64,000 nucleotides of DNA. It comes from an uncultured Alphaproteobacteria bacterium (lineage in GTDB: Bacteria > Pseudomonadota > Alphaproteobacteria > Rhizobiales > Ancalomicrobiaceae). The first letter of the stretch is position 1; each line of letters begins with the position of its first letter. Position numbers and translations under genes: made by a program. The DNA is taken from the NCBI GenBank assembly GCA_937864925.1, contig CALMFH010000236.1:2542-66541 (forward strand), read 5' to 3'. The notes beneath the pieces are model-generated. The model did no database searches. It was not told the origin of the DNA and saw only the letters and a program-made list of their open reading frames with translations. Below are positions 3,158 through 21,652 of this stretch, piece by piece.

Positions 3158-3619
3158 TCAGAGCTCCTTCGCTGCGCGCCGCACCTCGCGGTCGAGCGCC
3201 TGGAGGAACGCCTGGCGATCCTTCGGCGCGAAAGGGCGCGGGCCGCCGGTGACCTGACCGGCCGAACGCAGGTCCTCCATCAGGTCGCGCGTGGCGAGCG
3301 CCATGCCGATCGAGGCAGCATCGAAGCTGCGACCATTCGGCGCGATCACCCGGGCCCCGGCCTTCACACAGCGGTCGGCGAGCGGCACGTCGGCGGTCAC
3401 CACCACCGTTCCCCTTCCCGCCCGTTCGGCGATCCAATCGTCGGCGACGTTCGGCCCCTGGGGGACGATGACGCGTTCGACGAGCTCATCTTCCGGTAGA
3501 CGCATCCAGGAATTCGACACGAAGCAAGTCTTCAGACGCAATCTACTGGCGACTCGCAAGATTTCGTCTTTGACGGGGCAGGCGTCGGCGTCGACGTACA
3601 GGATCACGGAAGCGGTCAA
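3158..3619 (-). CDS. yaiI: YaiI/YqxD family protein (DUF188)
   Basis: ILYVDADACPVKDEI N-terminus and an overall 153-aa layout typical of UPF0178. Confidence 0.8.
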   Translation of the reverse strand: MTASVILYVDADACPVKDEILRVASRLRLKTCFVSNSWMRLPEDELVERVIVPQGPNVADDWIAERAGRGTVVVTADVPLADRCVKAGARVIAPNGRSFDAASIGMALATRDLMEDLRSAGQVTGGPRPFAPKDRQAFLQALDREVRRAAKEL

Positions 3620-3799
3620 GATGTTACCCTACGTAATTCATGTCTCGATCTGTTATTCCACGGAAATCACCGCATGTCATTTTTCACGAGAGGAAGCGAT
3701 CGACGTCGGTTCTTCGTTCGACTTCTTCGTGGGGTTTAACACCTCGTCAACCGTGTCGAGGTGAAATTGACAGAAGGGATCGGTTCGCGGGGATATTTC

Positions 3800-5755
3800 A
3801 TGCGGCTCCGTACACGTTTCGCGCTCGGCATCGGTGCCGGGATCACGGTCGCGGTCGCCCTCTGCGTCGGGACCGGCCTGTGGTTCATCGGCGGGCTGAT
3901 CCAGGACGACGTCCAACGCCAGCTCACCTCCGGATCGCGGCAGTTCACCGCCGAGATCTCCACCCAGGCCCAACGGGCGCAGTCGATGACACGGCTGGTG
4001 GCCAACGTCCCGAGTTTCGTCGATGCCTTCGCCCGCCAGGATCGCGAGGCGCTCGCCACCGCCCTGCTGCCGGCCTTCCCGGCGCTCAAGGCCGACGGGT
4101 TCGAACAGTTCCAGTTCCATCTGCCGCCGGCCACCTCGTTCCTCCGGGTGCATGCGCCGAAGAAGTTCGGCGACGACCTCTCCGGATTCCGCAAGACCGT
4201 GGTCGACGCCAACCGCGACCGCAAGGAGGTTCGCGGGCTCGAGGGCGGCGTCGCCGGCATGGGCATCCGCGCGGTCGGCCCGGTGACGAGCGGCGACAGG
4301 CATCTCGGCACGGTGGAGTTCGGCTTCGGCTTCGACAAGGAGTTCGTCAAGGCCTTCACCGAGCGGACCGGGCTCAGACTGGCCCTGTTCGTCGAGGGCA
4401 AAGACGGCGACGGCAAGGCGAAGCACACTCAACTCGCCTCGAGCTTCCCGGCCGATCACGCCTTCCCGGCGGCGATCCTCGACGGTGTCGACGATCATTT
4501 CGAGACCACCACCTTCGAAGACCGCGCCTGGACGATCGCCGGCAAGCCGCTGGTCGATTTCTCGGGCAAGCGCATCGGCACCTTCGTCATGGCGGCCGAC
4601 CGCACCGACCTCGACGCTGCCCGTACCCGGGCGATGGCGATCTTCGGGGCGCTGGCCCTGGCGATGACGGTCGGCGGCATCGCCATGGCGGCGTGGCTGC
4701 AGCACGACGTCGGTCGGCCGCTCGCCGCCCTCACCGCCGCGATGAAGACGATCGGCGAAGGCGGCCACGCCGTCGATCTGCCGGAACCGGGACCGATCGA
4801 CGAGATCGCCGCCATGGTGCACGCGGCCGGTTCGCTCGAAGAAGCGGTGGCGGCTCGCCGCGCCGGTGAGGCGCAGGCGCTCGAGGATGCGGAGCGGCGA
4901 CATCAGCGTGGGCTACGGCGCGAGGATCGCACCCGGAATTTCGGACGGTCGATCGAGAAGCTGCTCGGCGACATGTCGGCGGCGGCCGACCGTATGGAGA
5001 CGACGGCACGCGCGATGAACGAAGTCGCCGAACGGACGGCGTCTCGCTCCGGCGACGCGGCACGCCAAGCGGAGACGACGTCGCGCACCGTCCAGGCGGT
5101 GGCCGCGGCGAGCGAGGAACTGGCGAGTTCGGTGCACGAAGTGCTGCGCCGGGTCGATCGCGCCGCCGAGATCGCCGAACGCGCACTGTCCGAAGCCGAC
5201 GGGACCGACCATGTGGTGCGCAGTCTGGCGGCGAGTGGCGACCGCATCGGCGAGGTGGTCGATCTGATCAACACCATCGCCTCTCAGACCAATCTGCTCG
5301 CTCTCAACGCCACCATCGAAGCGGCGCGGGCCGGCGAGGCGGGGCGCGGTTTCGCCATCGTCGCCACCGAGGTCAAGGCACTGGCCGGCGAGACGACGCG
5401 GGCGACCGAAGCGATCAGCTCGCAGGTCGCCCATATCCAGGGCGAGACGCAGAAGGTGGTCGGCGCGATCGGCTCGATCGGTGCCACCATCCGCGAACTG
5501 ACCGAGATCGCCCGCGACATGGCCGGGGCGATGGGTGATCAGGATCTCGCCACCAAGGAGATCGCACAGAACATCCAGCAGGCCGCCGACGGCACCCGGG
5601 TGGTCTCCACCGGGATCGGCGCGGTCGGCGAGGACGCCGGCCACACCGGTCGGGCGGCGGCGAGCGTACTGACCACCGCTCACGAACTCGCTCAGTTCCG
5701 CACCGCGCTCCATCGCGAGATCGGCGTCTACATCGACGATCTCAAGCAGGTGTGA
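3800..5755 (+). CDS. Methyl-accepting chemotaxis protein with periplasmic Cache-like sensor
   Basis: N-terminal [30 protein letters not shown] Cache-type block, a second TM plus HAMP, and the conserved MCP signalling region [41 protein letters not shown]. The tracked ORF starts at GTG 3761. I prefer ATG 3800. Confidence 0.9.
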
Positions 5756-6866: not shown

Positions 6867-7427
6867 ATGGGCGCGGCGGACGACCTCTCCGATGCGGCCA
6901 TCGTCACCGATCGCCTGATCCTGCGGACCCATCGTCCCACCGACCTCGACGCCTACGCGCCGTTGTGGACGGCCACGCCGACGGGGATTTCGTTCACGCC
7001 GGTGCTCGATCGCGAGGGGGCCTGGGCGCGGCTGTTGCGGCTCGTCGGCCACCGGGTGGTCTTCGGTTTCGCCCCCTTCGTCGTCGTCGAGAAGGCGACC
7101 GGGTACATCGTCGGCGAGGTCGGCTTCGCGCGGTTCCGGCGCGGGATCGGGCCGGAGTTCGACGACGTGCCGGAGGCGATGTGGATCGTCGCCCGCGAAA
7201 TGCGGGGCAAGGGCTACGGCGGCGAGGCGATGGCCGCGGCGGTCGGTCGGTTCGACACGCGCTTCCCCGGCGGGCGCAGCGTCTGCATGATCGACCCGGC
7301 CAACACCGTGTCGCTGCGCCTCGCCGAGCGCCTCGGCTTCGGCGCCTTCGGCCGGACGACGCGGCACGGAGTCGACCTGATGCTGTTCGAAAGGCCGTCG
7401 AGTTCGGAGCCCCGAAGGGGACGGTGA
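6867..7427 (+). CDS. GNAT family N-acetyltransferase
   Basis: TDRLILRTHRPTDLDAY N-terminus and an acetyl-CoA pocket-like RGKGYGGEAMAAAV, as in RimJ/RimL-like proteins. Confidence 0.75.
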   Translation: MGAADDLSDAAIVTDRLILRTHRPTDLDAYAPLWTATPTGISFTPVLDREGAWARLLRLVGHRVVFGFAPFVVVEKATGYIVGEVGFARFRRGIGPEFDDVPEAMWIVAREMRGKGYGGEAMAAAVGRFDTRFPGGRSVCMIDPANTVSLRLAERLGFGAFGRTTRHGVDLMLFERPSSSEPRRGR

Positions 7428-7447
7428 GCCCGCGGGGCGAGCGAAAC

Positions 7448-7492
7448 GAAGACCCCGCGCCGGGGAGAACGGCGCGGGGTCTTCTTCTCCTC
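7448..7492. terminator. Strong hairpin between convergent GNAT and ald genes
   Basis: gaagaccccgcgcc-ggggagaac-ggcgcggggtcttc is a 14-bp perfect stem, followed by ttctcctc on the + strand and gtttcg on the - strand. Confidence 0.7.
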
Positions 7493-7506
7493 GAAAGACC
7501 GATCGC

Positions 7507-8625
7507 TCAGGCGGCGAGCGCCTTTGCGGTCGGCAGGAGGTCGTAACCGAGGGCCTCGGCCACGGCGGCGCAGGTGACCCGGCCGGCGTGGACGTTGAGG
7601 CCGTTCGCCAGATGCGGATCCTCGGTGATCGCCCGCCTCCACCCCTTGTCGGCGAGCGCCAGCGTGAAGGGCAGGGTCGCGGCGTTGAGGGCGAAGGTCG
7701 AGGTGCGGGCGACGCCACCGGGCATGTTGGCGACGCAGTAGTGGACGACGCCATCGACGACATAGGTCGGCTTGGAGTGCGTCGTCGGGCGCGACGTCTC
7801 GGTGCAACCGCCCTGGTCGATCGCAACGTCGACGATGACCGAACCGCGCTTCATGGTCTTGAGCATCGGTCTGGTGATGAGCTTCGGTGCGGCGGCGCCG
7901 GGGATCAGCACGGTGCCGATGACGAGGTCGGCGTCGGCGACGAGGTCGGCGATCGCCTCGCGGGTCGAATAGGCGGTCTTCAGACGCGCGCCGAAGCGGG
8001 CGTCGAGGCGGCGCAGGACATCGAGAGAGCGGTCGACCACGGTGACATCGGCGCCCATGCCGAGCGCGATGGTGGTGGCGTGGCTGCCGGAGACGCCGCC
8101 GCCGAGGACCACGACCCGGGCCGGGGCGACGCCGGGGACGCCACCCATCAGGATTCCGCGGCCCTTGCAGGCGTTCTCCAGCGCATGGGCGCCGACCTGC
8201 GCCGCCATGCGGCCGGCGACCTCGGACATCGGGGTCAGGAGCGGCAGGCCGCCGGTCGGCGAGGTCACGGTCTCGTAGGCGATGCAGGTGGCGCCGGAAT
8301 CGACCAGGTCACGGGTCTGCTCCGGATCGGGGGCGAGGTGGAGATAGGTGAAGAGGGTCTGGCCGGCACGGAGCTTCTTGCGCTCGACCGCCAGCGGCTC
8401 CTTGACCTTGACGATCATCTCGGACGAGGCCCAGATCGCATCGGTCTCGTCGGTGATGCGGGCACCGGCCTTGAGATAGTCCTTGTCGGCGATGCCGGCG
8501 CCGCGGCCGGCGCCCTTCTCGACCAGAACCTGATGGCCGTGAGCGACGAGTTCGCGCACCGAAGCCGGAATCAGGCCGACGCGATCCTCGTGATCCTTGA
8601 TCTCCTTGGGCACACCGATGCGCAT
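7507..8625 (-). CDS. ald: Alanine dehydrogenase
   Basis: MRIGVPKEIKDHEDRVGL start, VKVKEP, NAD-binding VVVLGGGVSGSHA, and IDQGGC. A GGAGGAGG RBS lies upstream of ATG 8625. Confidence 0.95.
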   Translation of the reverse strand: MRIGVPKEIKDHEDRVGLIPASVRELVAHGHQVLVEKGAGRGAGIADKDYLKAGARITDETDAIWASSEMIVKVKEPLAVERKKLRAGQTLFTYLHLAPDPEQTRDLVDSGATCIAYETVTSPTGGLPLLTPMSEVAGRMAAQVGAHALENACKGRGILMGGVPGVAPARVVVLGGGVSGSHATTIALGMGADVTVVDRSLDVLRRLDARFGARLKTAYSTREAIADLVADADLVIGTVLIPGAAAPKLITRPMLKTMKRGSVIVDVAIDQGGCTETSRPTTHSKPTYVVDGVVHYCVANMPGGVARTSTFALNAATLPFTLALADKGWRRAITEDPHLANGLNVHAGRVTCAAVAEALGYDLLPTAKALAA

Positions 8626-8786
8626 GGAACGTCCTCCTCCTGGCCGATCGGCGCGAGCCCCACGCCGTCGAACTATGTTCGAATGATGCGGGGCTTCTCG
8701 CGCAATTTCTCGCGAAAGAGGGGTTTTCAAACGTTTCGATCTGGTGATAAATTCGAACTTGTGATCTTTTTGCAGAATTTTCCGTC

Positions 8787-9260
8787 ATGACGTATCCGTC
8801 AACCTCTCTCGACGATCGCGATCGCCAGATCCTCTCCGAGCTGCAGACCGACGGGCGGCTGACCAATGCCGAGTTGGCCGACCGGGTGCATCTGTCGGCC
8901 TCCGCCTGTCTCAGGCGGGTGAACCTGCTGATGGAGAGTGGGCTGGTCGCCGGCACCCATCTGGTACTCGATCAGCAGGAGGCGGGGTTCGAGGGCACGG
9001 CCTACGTGTCGATCACCCTCGACAGCCAGGATCGCGCCCGCCTCGACGCCTTCGAGGCCAAGGTGCGGCACGTCGCCCAGATCCAGGAGTGCTATCTGCT
9101 CGCCGGCCAGTCGGACTACCTGATGCGGGTGATCTTCCGTGACATGGCCGACCTCGAACGTCTGCATTCCGAGGTGCTGACGCGGCTGCCGGGCGTCGTG
9201 CGGGTGCAGTCGCAGCTGACGCTGAGGACGGTGAAGCGGACGACGCGGGTGCCGGTGTGA
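8787..9260 (+). CDS. Lrp/AsnC family transcriptional regulator
   Basis: LDDRDRQILSELQTDGRLTNAELADRVHLSASACLRRV HTH plus a RAM domain. Divergent from ald, which is the classical arrangement. Confidence 0.9.
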   Translation: MTYPSTSLDDRDRQILSELQTDGRLTNAELADRVHLSASACLRRVNLLMESGLVAGTHLVLDQQEAGFEGTAYVSITLDSQDRARLDAFEAKVRHVAQIQECYLLAGQSDYLMRVIFRDMADLERLHSEVLTRLPGVVRVQSQLTLRTVKRTTRVPV

Positions 9261-13058: not shown

Positions 13059-14180
13059 TCAGTTCTTGAGGTGGATCATGCGCTCGACCGCCCGGCGGGC
13101 GCGAGCCGCGACCTCCGCGTCGACCACCACCTCCTCCTTCATCTCGAGCAGGGCGTCGAGAATCTTCGGCAGGGTGATGCGCTTCATGTGCGGGCAGAGA
13201 TTGCACGGCCGCACGAACTCGACCTGCGGCGCCTCGGAGGCGACGTTGTCGGCCATCGAGCACTCGGTCACCAGCACGACGCGACCGCCGGCCGGGACGT
13301 GCTTGACGAAGTCGATCATCTTGGCGGTCGAGCCGGCGAAGTCGGAGGCGGCGATGACGTCCGGCGGGCACTCCGGATGGGCGATGATCCGCACACTCGG
13401 ATCGGCGTCGCGGTAGGCCTGGAGCTCTTCGCCGGTGAAGCGCTCGTGCACCTCGCAGGAGCCCTTCCAGGTGATGATCTTGACCTTGGAATTGGCCGCC
13501 ACCCAGCGCGCCAGATACTGGTCGGGCAGGCAGATGACGCGATCGACACCGAAGCTCTCGACCACCTCGACGGCGTTCGACGAGGTGCAGGTGATGTCGA
13601 CCTCGGCCTTCACCTCGGCCGAGGTGTTGACATAGGCGACGATCGGCACGCCGGGGAAGCGGCGACGCAGCAGGCGCACGTCTTCCGCCGTGATCGAGGC
13701 GGCGAGCGAGCAGCCGGCCTTGCCGTCGGGGATGAGGACGGTCTTCTCCGGCGACAGCACCTTCGAGGTCTCGGCCATGAAGTGCACGCCGCCCTGGACG
13801 ATGATGTCGGCGTCGGTCTTCTCGGCGAGGCGAGCGAGTTGCAGGCTGTCGCCGACGACATCGGCGACGCAGTGATAGATCTCCGGCGTCATGTAGTTGT
13901 GCGCCAGGATCACGGCGTTGCGGACCTTCTTGAGGTCGTTGATCGCCTTGACGTAGGGGGCGTGGAACGGCCACTCGATCGCCGGGATGACGTGGGCCAC
14001 CTTCTCGTAGAGATGGGCCGTCGCCGCGGCGACCTCGGGCGTGTACTCGAGGCTCGGACGGGGCAGCACGCCGAAGCGCTCGGCGGCGGTCTTCGCCGGC
14101 GCGGCCCTGCGGCGGCGGCGCGGCGCAGCGCGGGCCTCGCCCGTGGGAGCTTCGTTCGTCGCCACCACCATCTCGGTCAT
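13059..14180 (-). CDS. nadA: Quinolinate synthase
   Basis: [18 protein letters not shown] and CxxC-type cluster ligands ([17 protein letters not shown]). First gene of the nadABC operon. Confidence 0.93.
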
Positions 14181-14500: not shown

Positions 14501-15739
14501 ATGACCGGGCCGTCGAGCGAACAGGGTTCGCGCTTTCCACTCTGGCTGATCGTCGTCTGCGGTTGTCTGATCGCGGCGATCAATTTCGGCCCGCGTTCGT
14601 CGATGGGTTTCTACCTGCGCCCCATCACCATGGAGCACGGCTGGAGCCGCGAGACCTTCTCGCTCGCCATGGCCTGGCAGAACCTGATGTGGGGCGTCGG
14701 CGCCACCTTCCTCGGCGGCTTCGCCGATCGTTACGGCACCGCCAAGACTCTGTCGATCGGCGCGGCGATCTATGCCCTCGGCATCCTCGCCATGGGCTGG
14801 GCGCAGACGCCGCTCGCTTTCCACGGCGCCGGAGTGCTGGTCGGTCTCGGCGTCGCCGGCTCCGCCTTCGGCATCGTCATGGCGGCTTTCGGCCGCGCCG
14901 TGACGCCCGACAAGCGCAGCCTCGTCTTCGGTTTCGCCACCGCTGCCGGATCGTTCGGCCAGTTCCTGTTCTCGCCGCTGACGCAGGGCCTGATCGTCAC
15001 CTTCGGCTGGCACGACAGCCTGACCATCCTGGCGGCCCTGATGGCGGCGATCCCGCTGCTCGCCATTCCGCTGATGGGCAAGCCGCCGGCCAAGATGGTG
15101 CACGGCCACGACCAGTCGATCGGCGAGGCCCTGAGGGAGGCGCTCGGGCATCGCAGCTACCTGCTGCTGGTCTCCGGCTTCTTCGTCTGCGGCTTCCAGA
15201 TCGCCTTCATCACCACCCACTTCCCGGCCTATCTGCAGGATGTCGGGCTCGATCCCAAGTGGGGCGTCACCGCACTGATGCTGATCGGTGTCTTCAACAT
15301 CGTCGGCTCGCTCGGCTCGGGTGTGCTCGGTATGCGGATGCCGAAGCGCTGGCTGCTCAGCTTCATCTACTTCGCCCGCTCGGTCGCCTTCACCCTGTTC
15401 CTCCTGTTCCCGGCGACGCCGATGTCGGTGATGCTCTTCGCCGCGGTGCTCGGGGTGTTGTGGCTGTCGACCGTGCCGCCGACCAACGCGCTGGTGGCGC
15501 TGATGTTCGGCACCCGCTACCTCGCCATGCTCGGTGGCGTGGTGTTCTTCTCCCACCAGGTCGGGTCGTTCCTCGGCGTGTGGCTCGGCGGCTGGCTCTA
15601 CGATCTCAACAGGAGCTACGACCCGGTGTGGTGGATGGGCGTCGCCCTCGGCCTCTTCGCGGCGGTCGTCCACCTGCCGATCCGCGAGGAGCCGGTCGAG
15701 CGGAGCCTGCCTGGAGGCGCGGTCCAGCCGGCCGAGTGA
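14501..15739 (+). CDS. MFS transporter
   Basis: 412 aa with about 12 TM helices. FGPRSSMGFYL and GGFADRYGT are MFS loop motifs. Start ATG 14501 follows GAGGGGGG. Confidence 0.8.
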   Translation: MTGPSSEQGSRFPLWLIVVCGCLIAAINFGPRSSMGFYLRPITMEHGWSRETFSLAMAWQNLMWGVGATFLGGFADRYGTAKTLSIGAAIYALGILAMGWAQTPLAFHGAGVLVGLGVAGSAFGIVMAAFGRAVTPDKRSLVFGFATAAGSFGQFLFSPLTQGLIVTFGWHDSLTILAALMAAIPLLAIPLMGKPPAKMVHGHDQSIGEALREALGHRSYLLLVSGFFVCGFQIAFITTHFPAYLQDVGLDPKWGVTALMLIGVFNIVGSLGSGVLGMRMPKRWLLSFIYFARSVAFTLFLLFPATPMSVMLFAAVLGVLWLSTVPPTNALVALMFGTRYLAMLGGVVFFSHQVGSFLGVWLGGWLYDLNRSYDPVWWMGVALGLFAAVVHLPIREEPVERSLPGGAVQPAE

Positions 15740-18764: not shown

Positions 18765-19358
18765 CTATAACCATGCCCCGCGGGCGTCCTGCCAGCGGAA
18801 TATGCGGTCCTGTGGAACGTAGTATACGGCCAGCGCGGGATCGCGATTGTTCTCGATGGCGAGGCGCAACGCGCGGAAGGTGCCGCCGTGCGAGACGATC
18901 ACCATGTCGCCCGTCGTGGTCGCCCACCAACGGGCGACGCGAGCGCAGAGCATGACGTAACTCTCGCCCTGCGGTGGCTGGTAGTGCCACTTGTCGTGGC
19001 GCAGACCGGCCATGGCGGCGGGATCGGCGGCCTCGATCTCGGCATGGGTCATGCCCTCGAAGATGCCGTAGCCGACCTCGCGCAGATCGGGTTCGAGCTC
19101 GTGGTCGGTGGCGGCGAGCCCGACGGCGCGGCGCACCCGCTCCATCGTCTCGCGGGCGCGAGAGAGCGGGCTCGAAACCCAGCGAAAGGCCGCGGGATCG
19201 AGGCCGGCATCGGCGAAATGAGCGGCGAGTGCGGCGCCGTTGGCCTCGGCCTGGGCGCGACCGGTGGCGTTCAAGGGAATGTCCTGCGCCCCCTGCAGGC
19301 GCCCGGCGACGTTCCAATCGGTCAGGCCGTGGCGGATGTGATAGATCGTGCGGGTCAC
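18765..19358 (-). CDS. Histidine phosphatase (phosphoglycerate mutase) family protein
   Basis: IYHIRHGLTDWN catalytic RHG motif and VSHGGT. Confidence 0.85.
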   Translation of the reverse strand: MTRTIYHIRHGLTDWNVAGRLQGAQDIPLNATGRAQAEANGAALAAHFADAGLDPAAFRWVSSPLSRARETMERVRRAVGLAATDHELEPDLREVGYGIFEGMTHAEIEAADPAAMAGLRHDKWHYQPPQGESYVMLCARVARWWATTTGDMVIVSHGGTFRALRLAIENNRDPALAVYYVPQDRIFRWQDARGAWL

Positions 19359-19416
19359 CGGCCGAACCTCGAAACGCGGAGCGTCGGGAGGGTCTTAGCC
19401 GAGGGAGGGGACGATC

Positions 19417-19857
19417 TCAACCGTGGTCGTCCGAGGCGGCAGCCTCACGTCGTTTGCGCTCGACCACTTCATCGAGATAGGCGCGGCCCTCGGCGGTGAT
19501 GAAGCGATAGTCGCCCCAGCCGAGATCGGGCATGCCCTCGGCGATCCACTCGGCGACGACACCCTCGACGATCTCCTCGGGCGTGTCTGCCCCGTAATGG
19601 ACGGGGCCGTCGAGGTGCCCCGCACGGCTGTACATCTCCCAGTGCTCCGGCCGGGCGCCGATCGCGGCCAGCGCCGCGACGCCACGGCGAACATAGGCGA
19701 CGAGGTCGTCGCCCTCGAGGCCGAAGCTGCGGCGACCGTCGGAGACGATCGAGGCGAGGTTCACGCCGATCTCGTCGTCGATCACCTCGTGGACGTAGCC
19801 TGCTACGTAATCGTCCATGGTTCCGCCGTCGAGGCGGCTGCGCAGTTCGTTCTTCAT
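19417..19857 (-). CDS. Hypothetical acidic 146-aa protein; candidate immunity partner
   Basis: ATG 19857-19855 overlaps the TGA 19856-19854 of the upstream gene. The protein is Asp/Glu-rich. No family recognised. Confidence 0.6.
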   Translation of the reverse strand: MKNELRSRLDGGTMDDYVAGYVHEVIDDEIGVNLASIVSDGRRSFGLEGDDLVAYVRRGVAALAAIGARPEHWEMYSRAGHLDGPVHYGADTPEEIVEGVVAEWIAEGMPDLGWGDYRFITAEGRAYLDEVVERKRREAAASDDHG

Positions 19858-20684
19858 TTCAGGTGGACCTTGTTGATACGCCACGACGAGAAGAACCAAT
19901 CGTCGGCAAAGTCGATCGTCGGTCCATTACTATTGCTCCATCTTACGCCGAAACGGGCGCCGTCCGAACGCAAGAACGACCGGCCGTTGTAACTCGCAGG
20001 CGATTGGACCTCGCGTGCTCCGACGAGAAGTTCGCTGAGTATGCGGTCGAAGCTCACTCGATCAACGGTCTCAATACCCCGCCCCGCGCCAGGTTCTCTC
20101 CAGCCCAGACGCAAGCCACCTAGTGCCAGACACTGTGCCGTATCGAGCGGCGCCAGGTAACCCCCACCCAGTTCCATCAGACGGGCTTCGGCTTCGCTGC
20201 GACGTGCCTCGGCTGCGGCGATCTCGCCTTCCACGGTCTCGGTCAGGCTGGCGCGCGGCCGCCAAGTCGGATCGATCTCACGGACGGCGGCCTCCGCTGC
20301 CCGCGCCTGCGCGGTAGTGACCTCGAGTCGAACCGCTTGGCCCGGTGTGACCTCGACTTCCCGACCTCCGACCCGCACTGTCGGCGTCTGCCGGCGGTTC
20401 GGGCCGCCGATCAGATCGATCAGTGCCTCGGCGAAGTCATCACCAGCGGGTTCGTCGACTATGGTGTCTTCACCAGTCGGATCCCCGCCGGTCCATTGGC
20501 CTCCGTCAGGGTTGCCGGCCGGGACTCGGGGCTGATCCGGCGAATACTTGCGATAGAGGTATTGGAACCGCAGGAAGCGCAGTTCGACGCCGAGGCCGAG
20601 CACCTCGGAGAACAACCGCCTCCTCGCCCGCTCGGCGTCTTCGCTTCTCGATAGTTGCGATGTGTCGAGCGTCTCGTGGTCCAT
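19854..20684 (-). CDS. Hypothetical 276-aa protein with polymorphic-toxin-like architecture
   Basis: This is the real C-terminal part of tracked ORF 19854..21947; the rest of that ORF is the antisense shadow of fabI. It carries a KYSPDQPRVPAGNPDGGQWTGG linker and an Ala/Glu-rich middle. The C-terminal ~100 aa lie in visibly lower-GC DNA. Confidence 0.6.
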   Translation of the reverse strand: MDHETLDTSQLSRSEDAERARRRLFSEVLGLGVELRFLRFQYLYRKYSPDQPRVPAGNPDGGQWTGGDPTGEDTIVDEPAGDDFAEALIDLIGGPNRRQTPTVRVGGREVEVTPGQAVRLEVTTAQARAAEAAVREIDPTWRPRASLTETVEGEIAAAEARRSEAEARLMELGGGYLAPLDTAQCLALGGLRLGWREPGAGRGIETVDRVSFDRILSELLVGAREVQSPASYNGRSFLRSDGARFGVRWSNSNGPTIDFADDWFFSSWRINKVHLK

Positions 20685-20772
20685 CGTTCGATGGCTCGGA
20701 GAATAGCGGCTGCGCGGACACCGAACCGAAGTCCCGGGATATCCTCGCTCATGAGGCCTGCCCAAACACAAC

Positions 20773-20800
20773 GGGCGCCTCCGGTTCCCCGGAGACGCCC
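20773..20800 (-). terminator. Hairpin terminator after fabI
   Basis: gggcgcctccgg-ttcc-ccggagacgccc is a 12-bp stem with one mismatch. On the - strand it is followed by gttgtgtttggg. Confidence 0.55.
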
Positions 20801-20833
20801 GTCGAAATCCCTCGCGATGGCCGTCGCCCGATC

Positions 20834-21652
20834 TCAGTCCTTGACCACCGAGATGTCCGGGGCGTCGACCGCCTTCATGCCGACGACGTGGTAGCCCGCG
20901 TCGACGTGGTGGATCTCGCCGGAGACGCCGCGGCCGAGGTCGGAGAGGAGGTAGAGCGCCGAGGCGCCGACCTCCTCGATCGACACGGTGCGCTTCAGCG
21001 GCGCGTTGTACTCGTTCCACTTCAGAATGTAGCGGAAGTCGCCGATGCCGGAGGCGGCGAGCGTCTTGATCGGGCCGGCGGAGATGGCGTTGACACGGAT
21101 ACCCTTGGAGCCGAGGTCGACGGCGAGATAGCGCACCGACGCTTCCAGGGCGGCCTTGGCGACGCCCATGACGTTGTAGTGCGGCATCACCTTCTCGGCG
21201 CCGTAGTAGGTCAGCGTGATCATCGAGCCGCCATCGGTCATCAGCTTCTCGGCGCGCTGGGCGACCGCCGTGAAGGAGTAGACCGAGATGTTCATGGTGC
21301 GGTCGAAGTTCTCCGCCGTGGTGTCGACGTAGCGGCCGGTGAGCTGGTCCTTGTCGGAGAAGGCGATGGCGTGGACGAGGAAATCGATCTTGCCCCAGAC
21401 CCGCTCGACTTCGGCGAAGACGGCATCGATCGAGGCGGCGTCGGTGACGTCGCAGTGGCCGGCGACGATGCCTCCGAGTTCGGCGGCGAGCGGCTCGACC
21501 CGCTTCTTCAGCGCGTCGCCCTGGTAGGTCAGCGCCACTTCCGCGCCGGCTTCGCGCACCGCCTTGGCGATGCCCCAGGCGATCGAGCGGTTGTTGGCGA
21601 CGCCCATCACGAGGCCACGCTTGCCGGCCATCAGGCCCTTGGTGTCGGCCAT
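20834..21652 (-). CDS. fabI: Enoyl-[acyl-carrier-protein] reductase (NADH)
   Basis: GKRGLVMGVANNRSIAWGIA, YYGAEKVMPHYNVMGVAKAALE (Tyr/Lys pair), and ISAGPIKTLAASG. Confidence 0.95.
   Translation of the reverse strand: MADTKGLMAGKRGLVMGVANNRSIAWGIAKAVREAGAEVALTYQGDALKKRVEPLAAELGGIVAGHCDVTDAASIDAVFAEVERVWGKIDFLVHAIAFSDKDQLTGRYVDTTAENFDRTMNISVYSFTAVAQRAEKLMTDGGSMITLTYYGAEKVMPHYNVMGVAKAALEASVRYLAVDLGSKGIRVNAISAGPIKTLAASGIGDFRYILKWNEYNAPLKRTVSIEEVGASALYLLSDLGRGVSGEIHHVDAGYHVVGMKAVDAPDISVVKD

Follow-up and report, generated by a model that had tools for sequence, protein, structure and literature searches.

What is the gene pair that lies between fabI and a histidine-phosphatase gene in the alphaproteobacterial contig CALMFH010000236.1, and, if it encodes a toxin, how could that toxin reach other cells? 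The question arises from a 64-kb stretch of this contig, analyzed as a whole and called the window below. On its minus strand, two open reading frames (ORFs) of 276 amino acids (aa) plus stop (19854-20684; tox) and 146 aa plus stop (19417-19857; imm) are flanked by fabI (20834-21652) and the phosphatase gene (18765-19358), and the stop codon of the first overlaps the start codon of the second in an ATGA at 19854-19857. Both the ORFs and the overlap can be read directly from the DNA, as they had been in the first-pass annotation, which proposed a toxin with a translationally coupled immunity protein. Neither protein has a match in Pfam, NCBIfam, or PHROGs, and the empty Pfam and NCBIfam searches show no homology of the pair to housekeeping families. 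The N-terminus of the 276-aa protein is charged and hydrophilic without any stretch resembling a signal peptide, as had been noted, and the 146-aa protein is indeed strongly acidic, with about 30 D/E against 15 K/R counted in the translation. Here, we argue that the pair is probably (at roughly 0.7) a solitary polymorphic toxin-immunity cassette, in which a module of ~175 aa is followed by a toxin domain of ~95 aa that is used also by CdiA proteins. At the level of sequence, the comparisons below establish that the protein is modular with a variable C-terminus, that CdiA proteins use its toxin domain too, that toxin and partner co-vary strictly, that the pair was inserted at this place, and that both genes are under purifying selection.

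A word-indexed protein search with the 276-aa protein yielded 573 homologues, most of which align pairwise to residues ~23-179 only and then diverge; about 25 align on to residue 276. In an alignment of 116 sequences the conserved part, the module, has the consensus KYxPDQPRVPAGNPDGGQWT ... TPAQxARL ... RVRExDPxWRPxPS..ETVEGxI ... ARLxEL, with Q51, G57, G62, W64, and W141 invariant and P139, P143, E152, and G153 nearly so. AlphaFold2 models the 276-aa protein with a mean pLDDT of 84. An amphipathic N-terminal helix at residues 8-46 (20547-20663, minus strand, as are all features of the pair) is modeled as a single helix with pLDDT ~90; it is kept in many free-standing relatives, whose alignments begin at query residues 7-23, and it is also present in the second copy after the capsid gene in locus L080. 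The linear motif K-Y-S-P-D-Q-P-R-V-P-A-G-N-P-D-G-G-Q-W-T (residues 46-65, 20490-20549), which holds four of the invariant positions, lies within a region modeled as disordered (residues 47-100; pLDDT of the motif ~50-57). Residues 101-172 (20169-20384), which form the structured latter half of the module, are confidently modeled as a hairpin-helix-loop-helix, composed of a beta-hairpin, a helix, a DPxWRP loop, and a second helix (pLDDT 93-97, W141 invariant), and a confident alpha/beta domain occupies residues 204-275. The first-pass annotation had associated the PAGNPDGGQW linker with phage MuF-type toxins, an association that proved right, as portal, MuF, and prohead-protease domains are all found with the motif behind them.

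The structured second half of the module gave 67 tblastn matches in the fetched loci, and the similarity between paralogues breaks just after it. Two paralogues in one contig have modules that are 82-98% identical and C-termini that are 45-50% identical. A MafB19-type deaminase is the alternative C-terminus in 12 of the 116 members, and others that follow the module are a CdiA-CT RNase A domain, an ADP-ribosyltransferase, and a common Cys/His-rich type. A conserved N-terminal region with diverse, exchangeable C-terminal domains is one of the features by which polymorphic toxins are recognized, and it is seen here in nine C-terminus clusters among 46 non-redundant module ORFs.

The C-terminal toxin domain of the window protein (residues 180-276, 19857-20147) is low in G+C and has an alpha/beta model with pLDDT >90. 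An exhaustive HMMER search with residues 174-276 led to 127 cluster representatives, in nearly all of which the domain forms the extreme C-terminus of a protein that may be anything from ~90 aa to 3,539 aa long. Nine of the longer carriers were scanned; six show CdiA-type features (TPS, Fil_haemagg_2, DUF637, PT-VENN), a seventh matches Phage_portal (E 3.6e-87), and two are without a recognized domain. The toxin domain is thus shared with other delivery systems, the CdiA-type carriers and the portal carrier, a second feature of polymorphic toxins. Its conserved positions are T206, R239, D241, R248, S250, T256, and H274, and all conserved residues of both the module and the toxin domain are present in the window copy. 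Pfam on 35 toxin-domain sequences gave noise only, Foldseek with the full-length toxin model against PDB and BFVD gave nothing at E <= 0.001, and profile searches against PDB sequences with the toxin and the immunity protein gave chance-level matches only. BECR toxins of the Ntox7 or Ntox20 type have a motif of the form 'DGx+xhR', and the DGxxFGxR stretch of the domain is similar to, though offset from, the Ntox7 motif as described (Zhang et al., 2012, PMC3482391); no identity was confirmed or claimed from this comparison with the description. From the size of the domain, its helix-plus-beta-meander topology, and the conserved R/D/R/S/T/H residues, there is an even chance that it is a nuclease, in that case probably a small metal-independent RNase, a guess that also draws on general knowledge of CdiA-CT domains. 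The toxin query additionally matched P0133, a protein of 577 aa with repeats of 'GWREPGRGDGVHS', in nine short stretches that resemble residues 186-208 through low complexity, and P0133 was rejected as a relative of the toxin because it is a low-complexity false positive.

The 146-aa protein (imm, 19417-19857) is predicted to be the cognate immunity protein. A search with its single sequence found four relatives only, and a profile search found at least 190 members of 110-135 aa in an immunity family that has no Pfam model; Pfam on 65 immunity sequences gave noise only. Homologues lie downstream at all examined copies of the toxin domain: directly 3' of it in L002, L003, L008, L040, L078, L079, and L080, and in none of the fetched loci with a different C-terminus. 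The overlap seen in the window, or a gap of at most 80 bp, recurs in L003, L079, L080, L078, and L168. The last of these is a contact-dependent inhibition locus, in which an orphan CdiA-CT with the same toxin domain is followed by an overlapping, uncalled ORF that matches the immunity profile (E 2e-46) and is 37% identical to the 146-aa protein of the window. As far as sequence comparison can tell, this recurrence of the pair across systems is the most telling test of the toxin-immunity pairing. Among pairs drawn from the 46 module ORFs in their nine clusters, the family of the downstream ORF is shared by 104 of 119 pairs with the same C-terminus versus 0 of 622 pairs with different C-termini; these pairs are not independent of each other, so that the Fisher p-value is descriptive only. 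An immunity gene that lies immediately downstream and co-varies with the toxin domain is a third feature of polymorphic toxins, and with it the parts of the earlier toxin-immunity proposal that are open to comparison of sequences, namely a conserved N-terminus, a variable C-terminus, a domain shared with CdiA, and strict co-variation of the partner, have each been found, in favor of that proposal. The immunity protein was modeled with pLDDT 87, and Foldseek with this model against PDB gave nothing at E <= 0.001. Its best fold match, 2O5H, is not significant (E 0.45, TM 0.36-0.42) and comes without a profile match to PDB or Pfam. 2O5H is the Imm-NMB0513 (DUF596) immunity protein, and this weak match was followed into the literature (Zhang et al., 2012, PMC3482391), without an identity being confirmed or claimed.

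The base composition of the toxin gene points to a foreign origin. The DNA of the toxin domain (19857-20147, the last 97 codons) has a G+C content of 0.584, within the lowest 1.3% of 300-bp windows across the 64 kb (mean 0.69, sd 0.037), and the G+C content at third codon positions (GC3) is 0.64 in the C-terminal domain and 0.70 in the whole gene. The neighbors fabI, phosphatase, DLH, and aroC have GC3 values of 0.85-0.95. The first-pass annotation had described a compositional break for the cassette; this stands for the toxin gene, whereas the 146-aa gene of its partner has a near-native GC3 of 0.84, which limits the break to tox. Elsewhere in the window, the two largest stretches of low GC (3400-3800 and 8500-8800) are both divergent intergenic regions, one between DUF188-like and chemoreceptor genes and the other between alanine dehydrogenase and Lrp/AsnC regulator genes, and isolated low windows lie at 14151, 31701, and 49451.

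The pair is also foreign to its position. In FabI-anchored loci compared from 80 Hyphomicrobiales genomes, the phosphatase gene starts ~10-360 bp from fabI in 74 of the 80, and neither tox nor imm is found at the junction in any of the 80. This is the comparison of the fabI-phosphatase interval that the first-pass annotation had proposed, and since the pair is absent from this junction in all 80 genomes, it is not conserved at the locus across the order with native composition. The insert of ~1.4 kb (the whole interval from the fabI stop to the phosphatase start is 1,475 bp, 19359-20833) is common only to the window and a Siculibacillus metagenome-assembled genome (MAG; L002), whose copy of the pair is 93% identical, and FabI of the window is 91% identical to that of Siculibacillus lacustris; both values place the window in Ancalomicrobiaceae, Hyphomicrobiales. 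By these comparisons the cassette is a lineage-specific insertion, of the Siculibacillus lineage, into an otherwise tight fabI-phosphatase junction. In S. lacustris SA-279 itself (L082:6817-7931), the sequence diverges right after the fabI stop into low-GC DNA (0.33-0.68), with a decayed module fragment, AVREIEPKWRPRAYLYEGV, at 7395-7517; the contig then ends within the N-terminal part of an IS256-type transposase, and the site looks like a decaying or turned-over cassette. Mongoliimonas terrestris has an enlarged gap of 1.4 kb at this place (L134:6820-8190), which was considered as a second cassette and rejected, since what fills it is a second paralogue of the histidine phosphatase and, on the opposite strand, an ORF for an Uma2-like endonuclease.

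Measured against the Siculibacillus MAG, tox has a ratio of nonsynonymous to synonymous divergence (dN/dS) of 0.43, compared with 0.16 in imm, 0.18 in the phosphatase gene, and 0.03 in fabI; within tox the ratio is 0.61 for the first 100 codons, 0.23 for the second half of the module, and 0.31 for the toxin domain. The values of 0.43 and 0.16 thus indicate purifying selection on both genes of the pair. Between the window (18765-19358) and the MAG (L002:11328-11921), the phosphatase gene has a dS of 0.60 and a nucleotide identity of 82%, and the dS values of the cassette (0.08-0.17) and of fabI (0.19) are far below this, which hints at a recent exchange of the cassette or recombination at the junction. 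The upstream limit of the insert is a hairpin 3' of fabI at 20769-20804 (minus strand), which had been predicted as a terminator and proved real, with a 16-bp stem and a dG of -38.3 kcal/mol (z -4.4 against shuffles); because its T-run is weak, it is not called by a simple terminator scan. The 8-nt TGAGATCG at 20829-20836 on the minus strand includes the stop codon of fabI and recurs at the stop codon of imm (19412-19419; direct repeat family D4, spacing 1417 nt), so that the two copies, 1,417 nt apart, bracket the insert. These repeats may be insertion microhomology or chance.

The settings in which module-bearing relatives occur bear on the way such a toxin may be delivered. The first-pass annotation had left the delivery route open, and had stated that the window holds no carrier. 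The latter was confirmed, as queries with CdiA, portal, MuF, terminase, and structural proteins of gene transfer agents (GTAs) matched nothing in the window other than the gene pair itself, and there is no cdiB or cdiA in the window. The route is nevertheless less open than stated, because relatives of the cassette lie inside GTA or prophage head modules. A linked secretion or delivery apparatus, expected of polymorphic toxins, is thus missing from the window and is present for most relatives in the form of these head modules. In IMG/VR, 195 relatives were found in 75 loci, often with 2-4 copies on one strand, and at least 25 of these loci are colinear with an RcGTA-type cluster. In ten long ORFs the motif lies 500-700 residues into the protein. 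Nine of them are fusions to Phage_portal, including one that ends in an RNase A-type toxin, and the tenth (L068) combines MuF, the motif, and an ADP-ribosyltransferase.

Ten genomic contexts were picked only for the length of sequence around the cassette. Seven are RcGTA-type clusters (L078, L080, L162 of Rhodopseudomonas sp. NSM, L163, L164, L166, and L167), all bounded by host genes; L165 is a prophage that has a repressor, a terminase, and a portal; and two are lone chromosomal copies, that of Terrirubrum (L079) and the window locus. The genes of the clusters run in the order terminase, portal, S78 protease, capsid, connector, HCP, tail completion, major tail, TAC, DUF2460, BR0599, NlpC/P60, and GTA_TIM, and it is by the Pfam family names and the gene order of RcGTA that we take them to be RcGTA-type. 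The cassettes are placed after the portal gene, after the capsid gene, or between g13 and g14, and the hosts of the GTA clusters and prophages with the free-standing module are Hyphomicrobiales. In a GTA-type cluster of Phyllobacterium bourgognense (L163:3829-6913), the S78 prohead protease is itself extended to 524 aa by module and toxin, and the next ORF, of 361 aa, joins an S78 fragment to a CdiA-CT RNase A domain and looks like a displaced toxin cassette that retains part of its carrier gene.

Other genes recur around these cassettes. In the capsid-g6 interval of L078, L080, L162, L164, and L166, the toxin cassettes have beside them, on the opposite strand, one or two genes for trypsin-like serine proteases. 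Short ORFs with weak Phage_capsid matches (L078:13036-13158 and 14549-14665) are found among toxin-immunity units 3' of the capsid gene and suggest repeated displacement of the 3' end of that gene. In the cassette arrays (L162:15153-16990 and L165:15465-15836), unassigned ORFs of 209-275 aa are repeatedly followed by DUF2019 (PF09450) proteins, which are probably another immunity family that is paired with another toxin type. The prophage of L165, which bears module-toxin cassettes, also holds a T6SS_Tle1-like lipase gene on the opposite strand (L165:19549-20742).

The C-terminus of the portal, the prohead protease, and MuF are all inside the procapsid, and the module is therefore proposed to place the toxin inside the head. 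The linear motif QPRVPAG..GGQW probably marks proteins destined for phage-type heads; invariant within a disordered region, it may serve as a docking or processing site. Free-standing proteins such as the one in the window would be loaded in trans into a particle whose genes lie at another place in the genome. Inside the procapsid, the toxin would be set free, possibly by the prohead protease, and would leave the head with the DNA into recipient cells, where it would harm those without the immunity gene; in the producer, the 146-aa protein would bind and neutralize it. The structured second half of the module might, more speculatively, act across the inner membrane like the entry domains of CdiA-CT. 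That the module addresses the toxin of the window in this manner into a GTA or phage procapsid encoded elsewhere, to be released, ejected with DNA, and harmful to recipients without the immunity gene, we consider a serious possibility, at slightly less than even odds. More tentatively, and less probably, we propose it as a general rule that RcGTA-type GTAs and related prophages of Hyphomicrobiales load polymorphic toxins through the module, as portal or protease fusions or in trans, and co-inject them with DNA, so that the particle is harmless only to immune kin.

Several points weigh against the cassette reading or against delivery in a head. The toxin domain is without a relative in Pfam, PDB sequences, PDB folds, or BFVD folds, so that its activity is not indicated by any of them. 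The 64-kb window contains no gene for a portal, protease, MuF protein, terminase, capsid, or GTA tail, nor a second copy of the module, and since no carrier is present, delivery here would depend on an element outside the window. A promoter scan, which is weak for a high-GC alphaproteobacterium, found no promoter-like site upstream of the pair. The module had no tblastn match in 50,697 isolated phage genomes and none in PHROGs, and no virion proteome supports its packaging. The DNA of RcGTA reaches the periplasm and is imported by competence proteins, so that a co-ejected toxin would still need a route across the inner membrane. Finally, S. lacustris keeps only a decayed remnant beside an IS element, and the cassette is therefore dispensable.

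Among the rival explanations, not all of which exclude one another, the strongest is that of a stranded cassette retained chiefly because of its immunity gene: the toxin would no longer be delivered, and the 146-aa protein would shield the cell from the GTA, prophage, or CdiA toxin of neighbors. The cassette is alone, without a carrier in the window, imm is under stricter selection (0.16) than tox (0.43, rising to 0.61 in the first 100 codons), and the neighbor species S. lacustris has let the site decay. Several immunity paralogues lie together in one MAG contig (QOF14_5196, 5201, and 5202). An incoming toxin is also plausible, as CdiA proteins and portal fusions elsewhere deploy the same domain. 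However, the toxin ORF is intact with all invariant residues of module and toxin kept, the toxin domain and the latter half of the module have dN/dS values under 1 (0.31 and 0.23), and the translational coupling is preserved. We regard this explanation as rather unlikely, although less so than the other rivals.

Less probable still is a silent reservoir, in which the module would be a homology arm for recombination of an orphan cassette onto the 3' end of a portal or protease gene, as in orphan cdiA-CT and rhs-CT. Such a role would fit the arrays of module-toxin-immunity units 3' of portal or protease fusions, some of which have carrier fragments (S78-RNase A in L163, capsid 3' fragments in L078), and the paralogues with homogenized modules and divergent C-termini. 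Yet a free-standing protein begins at a start codon of its own and has the conserved N-terminal helix, and so is not simply a fragment of a carrier; the invariant positions of the module are kept among proteins that are only 30-40% identical, which argues for a function of the protein and not for DNA homology alone; and any gene that might receive the cassette is far from the window copy. We think a reservoir improbable.

An intracellular type II toxin-antitoxin (TA) pair, acting in addiction or abortive infection without delivery, is quite improbable. A chromosomal insert of two translationally coupled genes with a compositionally foreign character could well be such a pair, and some polymorphic-toxin domains occur in TA systems too (Zhang et al., 2012, PMC3482391). 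Against this, the toxin gene comes first and carries a 175-aa module common to portal, protease, and MuF fusions, secreted CdiA proteins bear the same toxin domain at their tip, and the partner has no DNA-binding domain or TA-family match detected in searches of the family libraries, a PADLOC scan not being part of these. That the pair is an ordinary housekeeping pair native to the locus is refuted for practical purposes, as its synteny in one related MAG and the native GC3 of the partner gene are outweighed by the empty junction in 80 related genomes, the foreign composition of the toxin gene, and a variable C-terminus shared with CdiA.

The window pair is a small, dispensable, horizontally acquired insert, and the value of the finding lies in the family it reveals and in a testable link between polymorphic toxins and GTAs. 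The cassette led to a large toxin-immunity family that has no Pfam or PHROGs model and whose module is fused to, or lies beside, proteins of the GTA head interior. Independent of any packaging, a new toxin domain shared with CdiA and its immunity family are defined. Why alphaproteobacteria keep GTAs, whose production kills the producer, is a long-standing puzzle. If the toxins are packaged, GTAs would take part in inter-strain conflict and kin recognition; they would be kin-discriminating weapons or gatekeepers besides being devices for gene exchange, and lone chromosomal cassettes like that of the window would be trans-acting cargo for the GTA of the genome. The module, the toxin domain, the immunity family, the GTA portal and protease fusions, and the free-standing GTA forms were not found described in the literature, nor was a description of GTA-borne polymorphic toxins found, in a coverage that left out most subscription journals.

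Among known systems, type II TA systems are defined by a small toxin of a known TA superfamily and an autoregulatory DNA-binding antitoxin; no TA or DNA-binding family is matched here. The internal proteins of phage T4 have an N-terminal capsid-targeting signal of ~10 residues, are processed by the prohead protease, and are injected with the DNA; they are anti-restriction proteins without immunity partners. They resemble the working model for the free-standing form but are not known to be related to it in sequence. Orphan cdiA-CT/cdiI and rhs-CT/rhsI arrays likewise consist of tandem displaced units 3' of a main gene, some with an upstream conserved piece, but unlike them the free-standing units here carry a complete module, their own start, and an N-terminal helix. 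The RcGTA cluster, with its colinear g2-g15 genes (terminase, portal, S78 protease, and capsid to GTA_TIM), has no counterpart in the window, whereas related cassettes do lie within clusters of this type. CdiA-CT/CdiI of type Vb secretion shares the same toxin and immunity families with the same overlap, which in L168 follow DUF637 and PT-VENN, but the window protein is without a TPS domain, filamentous hemagglutinin (FHA) repeats, or a VENN motif.

Effector domains on a portal or MuF protein are likewise found in the polyvalent proteins, where PBECR RNase, 2H, and InPase domains are fused to portal or MuF and injection with the DNA is predicted (Iyer et al., 2017, PMC5512222). These are read as phage effectors against host defense, and immunity genes, cassette arrays, GTA clusters, and the module of the window do not feature among them (PMC5512222). 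The nearest described system is that of the MuF polymorphic toxins of temperate phages, whose packaging in the capsid has been hypothesized and is unproven (Zhang et al., 2012, PMC3482391; Jamet et al., 2017, PMC5576092; Bxa/Apk2 work, PMC11699363). In MuF toxins, too, a variable C-terminal toxin is joined to a conserved N-terminal part associated with the head, a small immunity ORF follows, and the genes lie next to that of the portal in the head-morphogenesis or packaging module. The window protein differs from them in having no MuF domain (PF04233, PF06152, or related) by Pfam, NCBIfam, and PHROGs, and its gene lies between fabI and the phosphatase gene, outside any phage region and not in a prophage head module. 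The carrier in the window's family is mostly a portal or S78 prohead protease, or there is none and the protein is free-standing. Whereas MuF toxins are hosted by inducible prophages of Firmicutes and Bacteroidota, the family of the window is at home in RcGTA-type clusters of Hyphomicrobiales.

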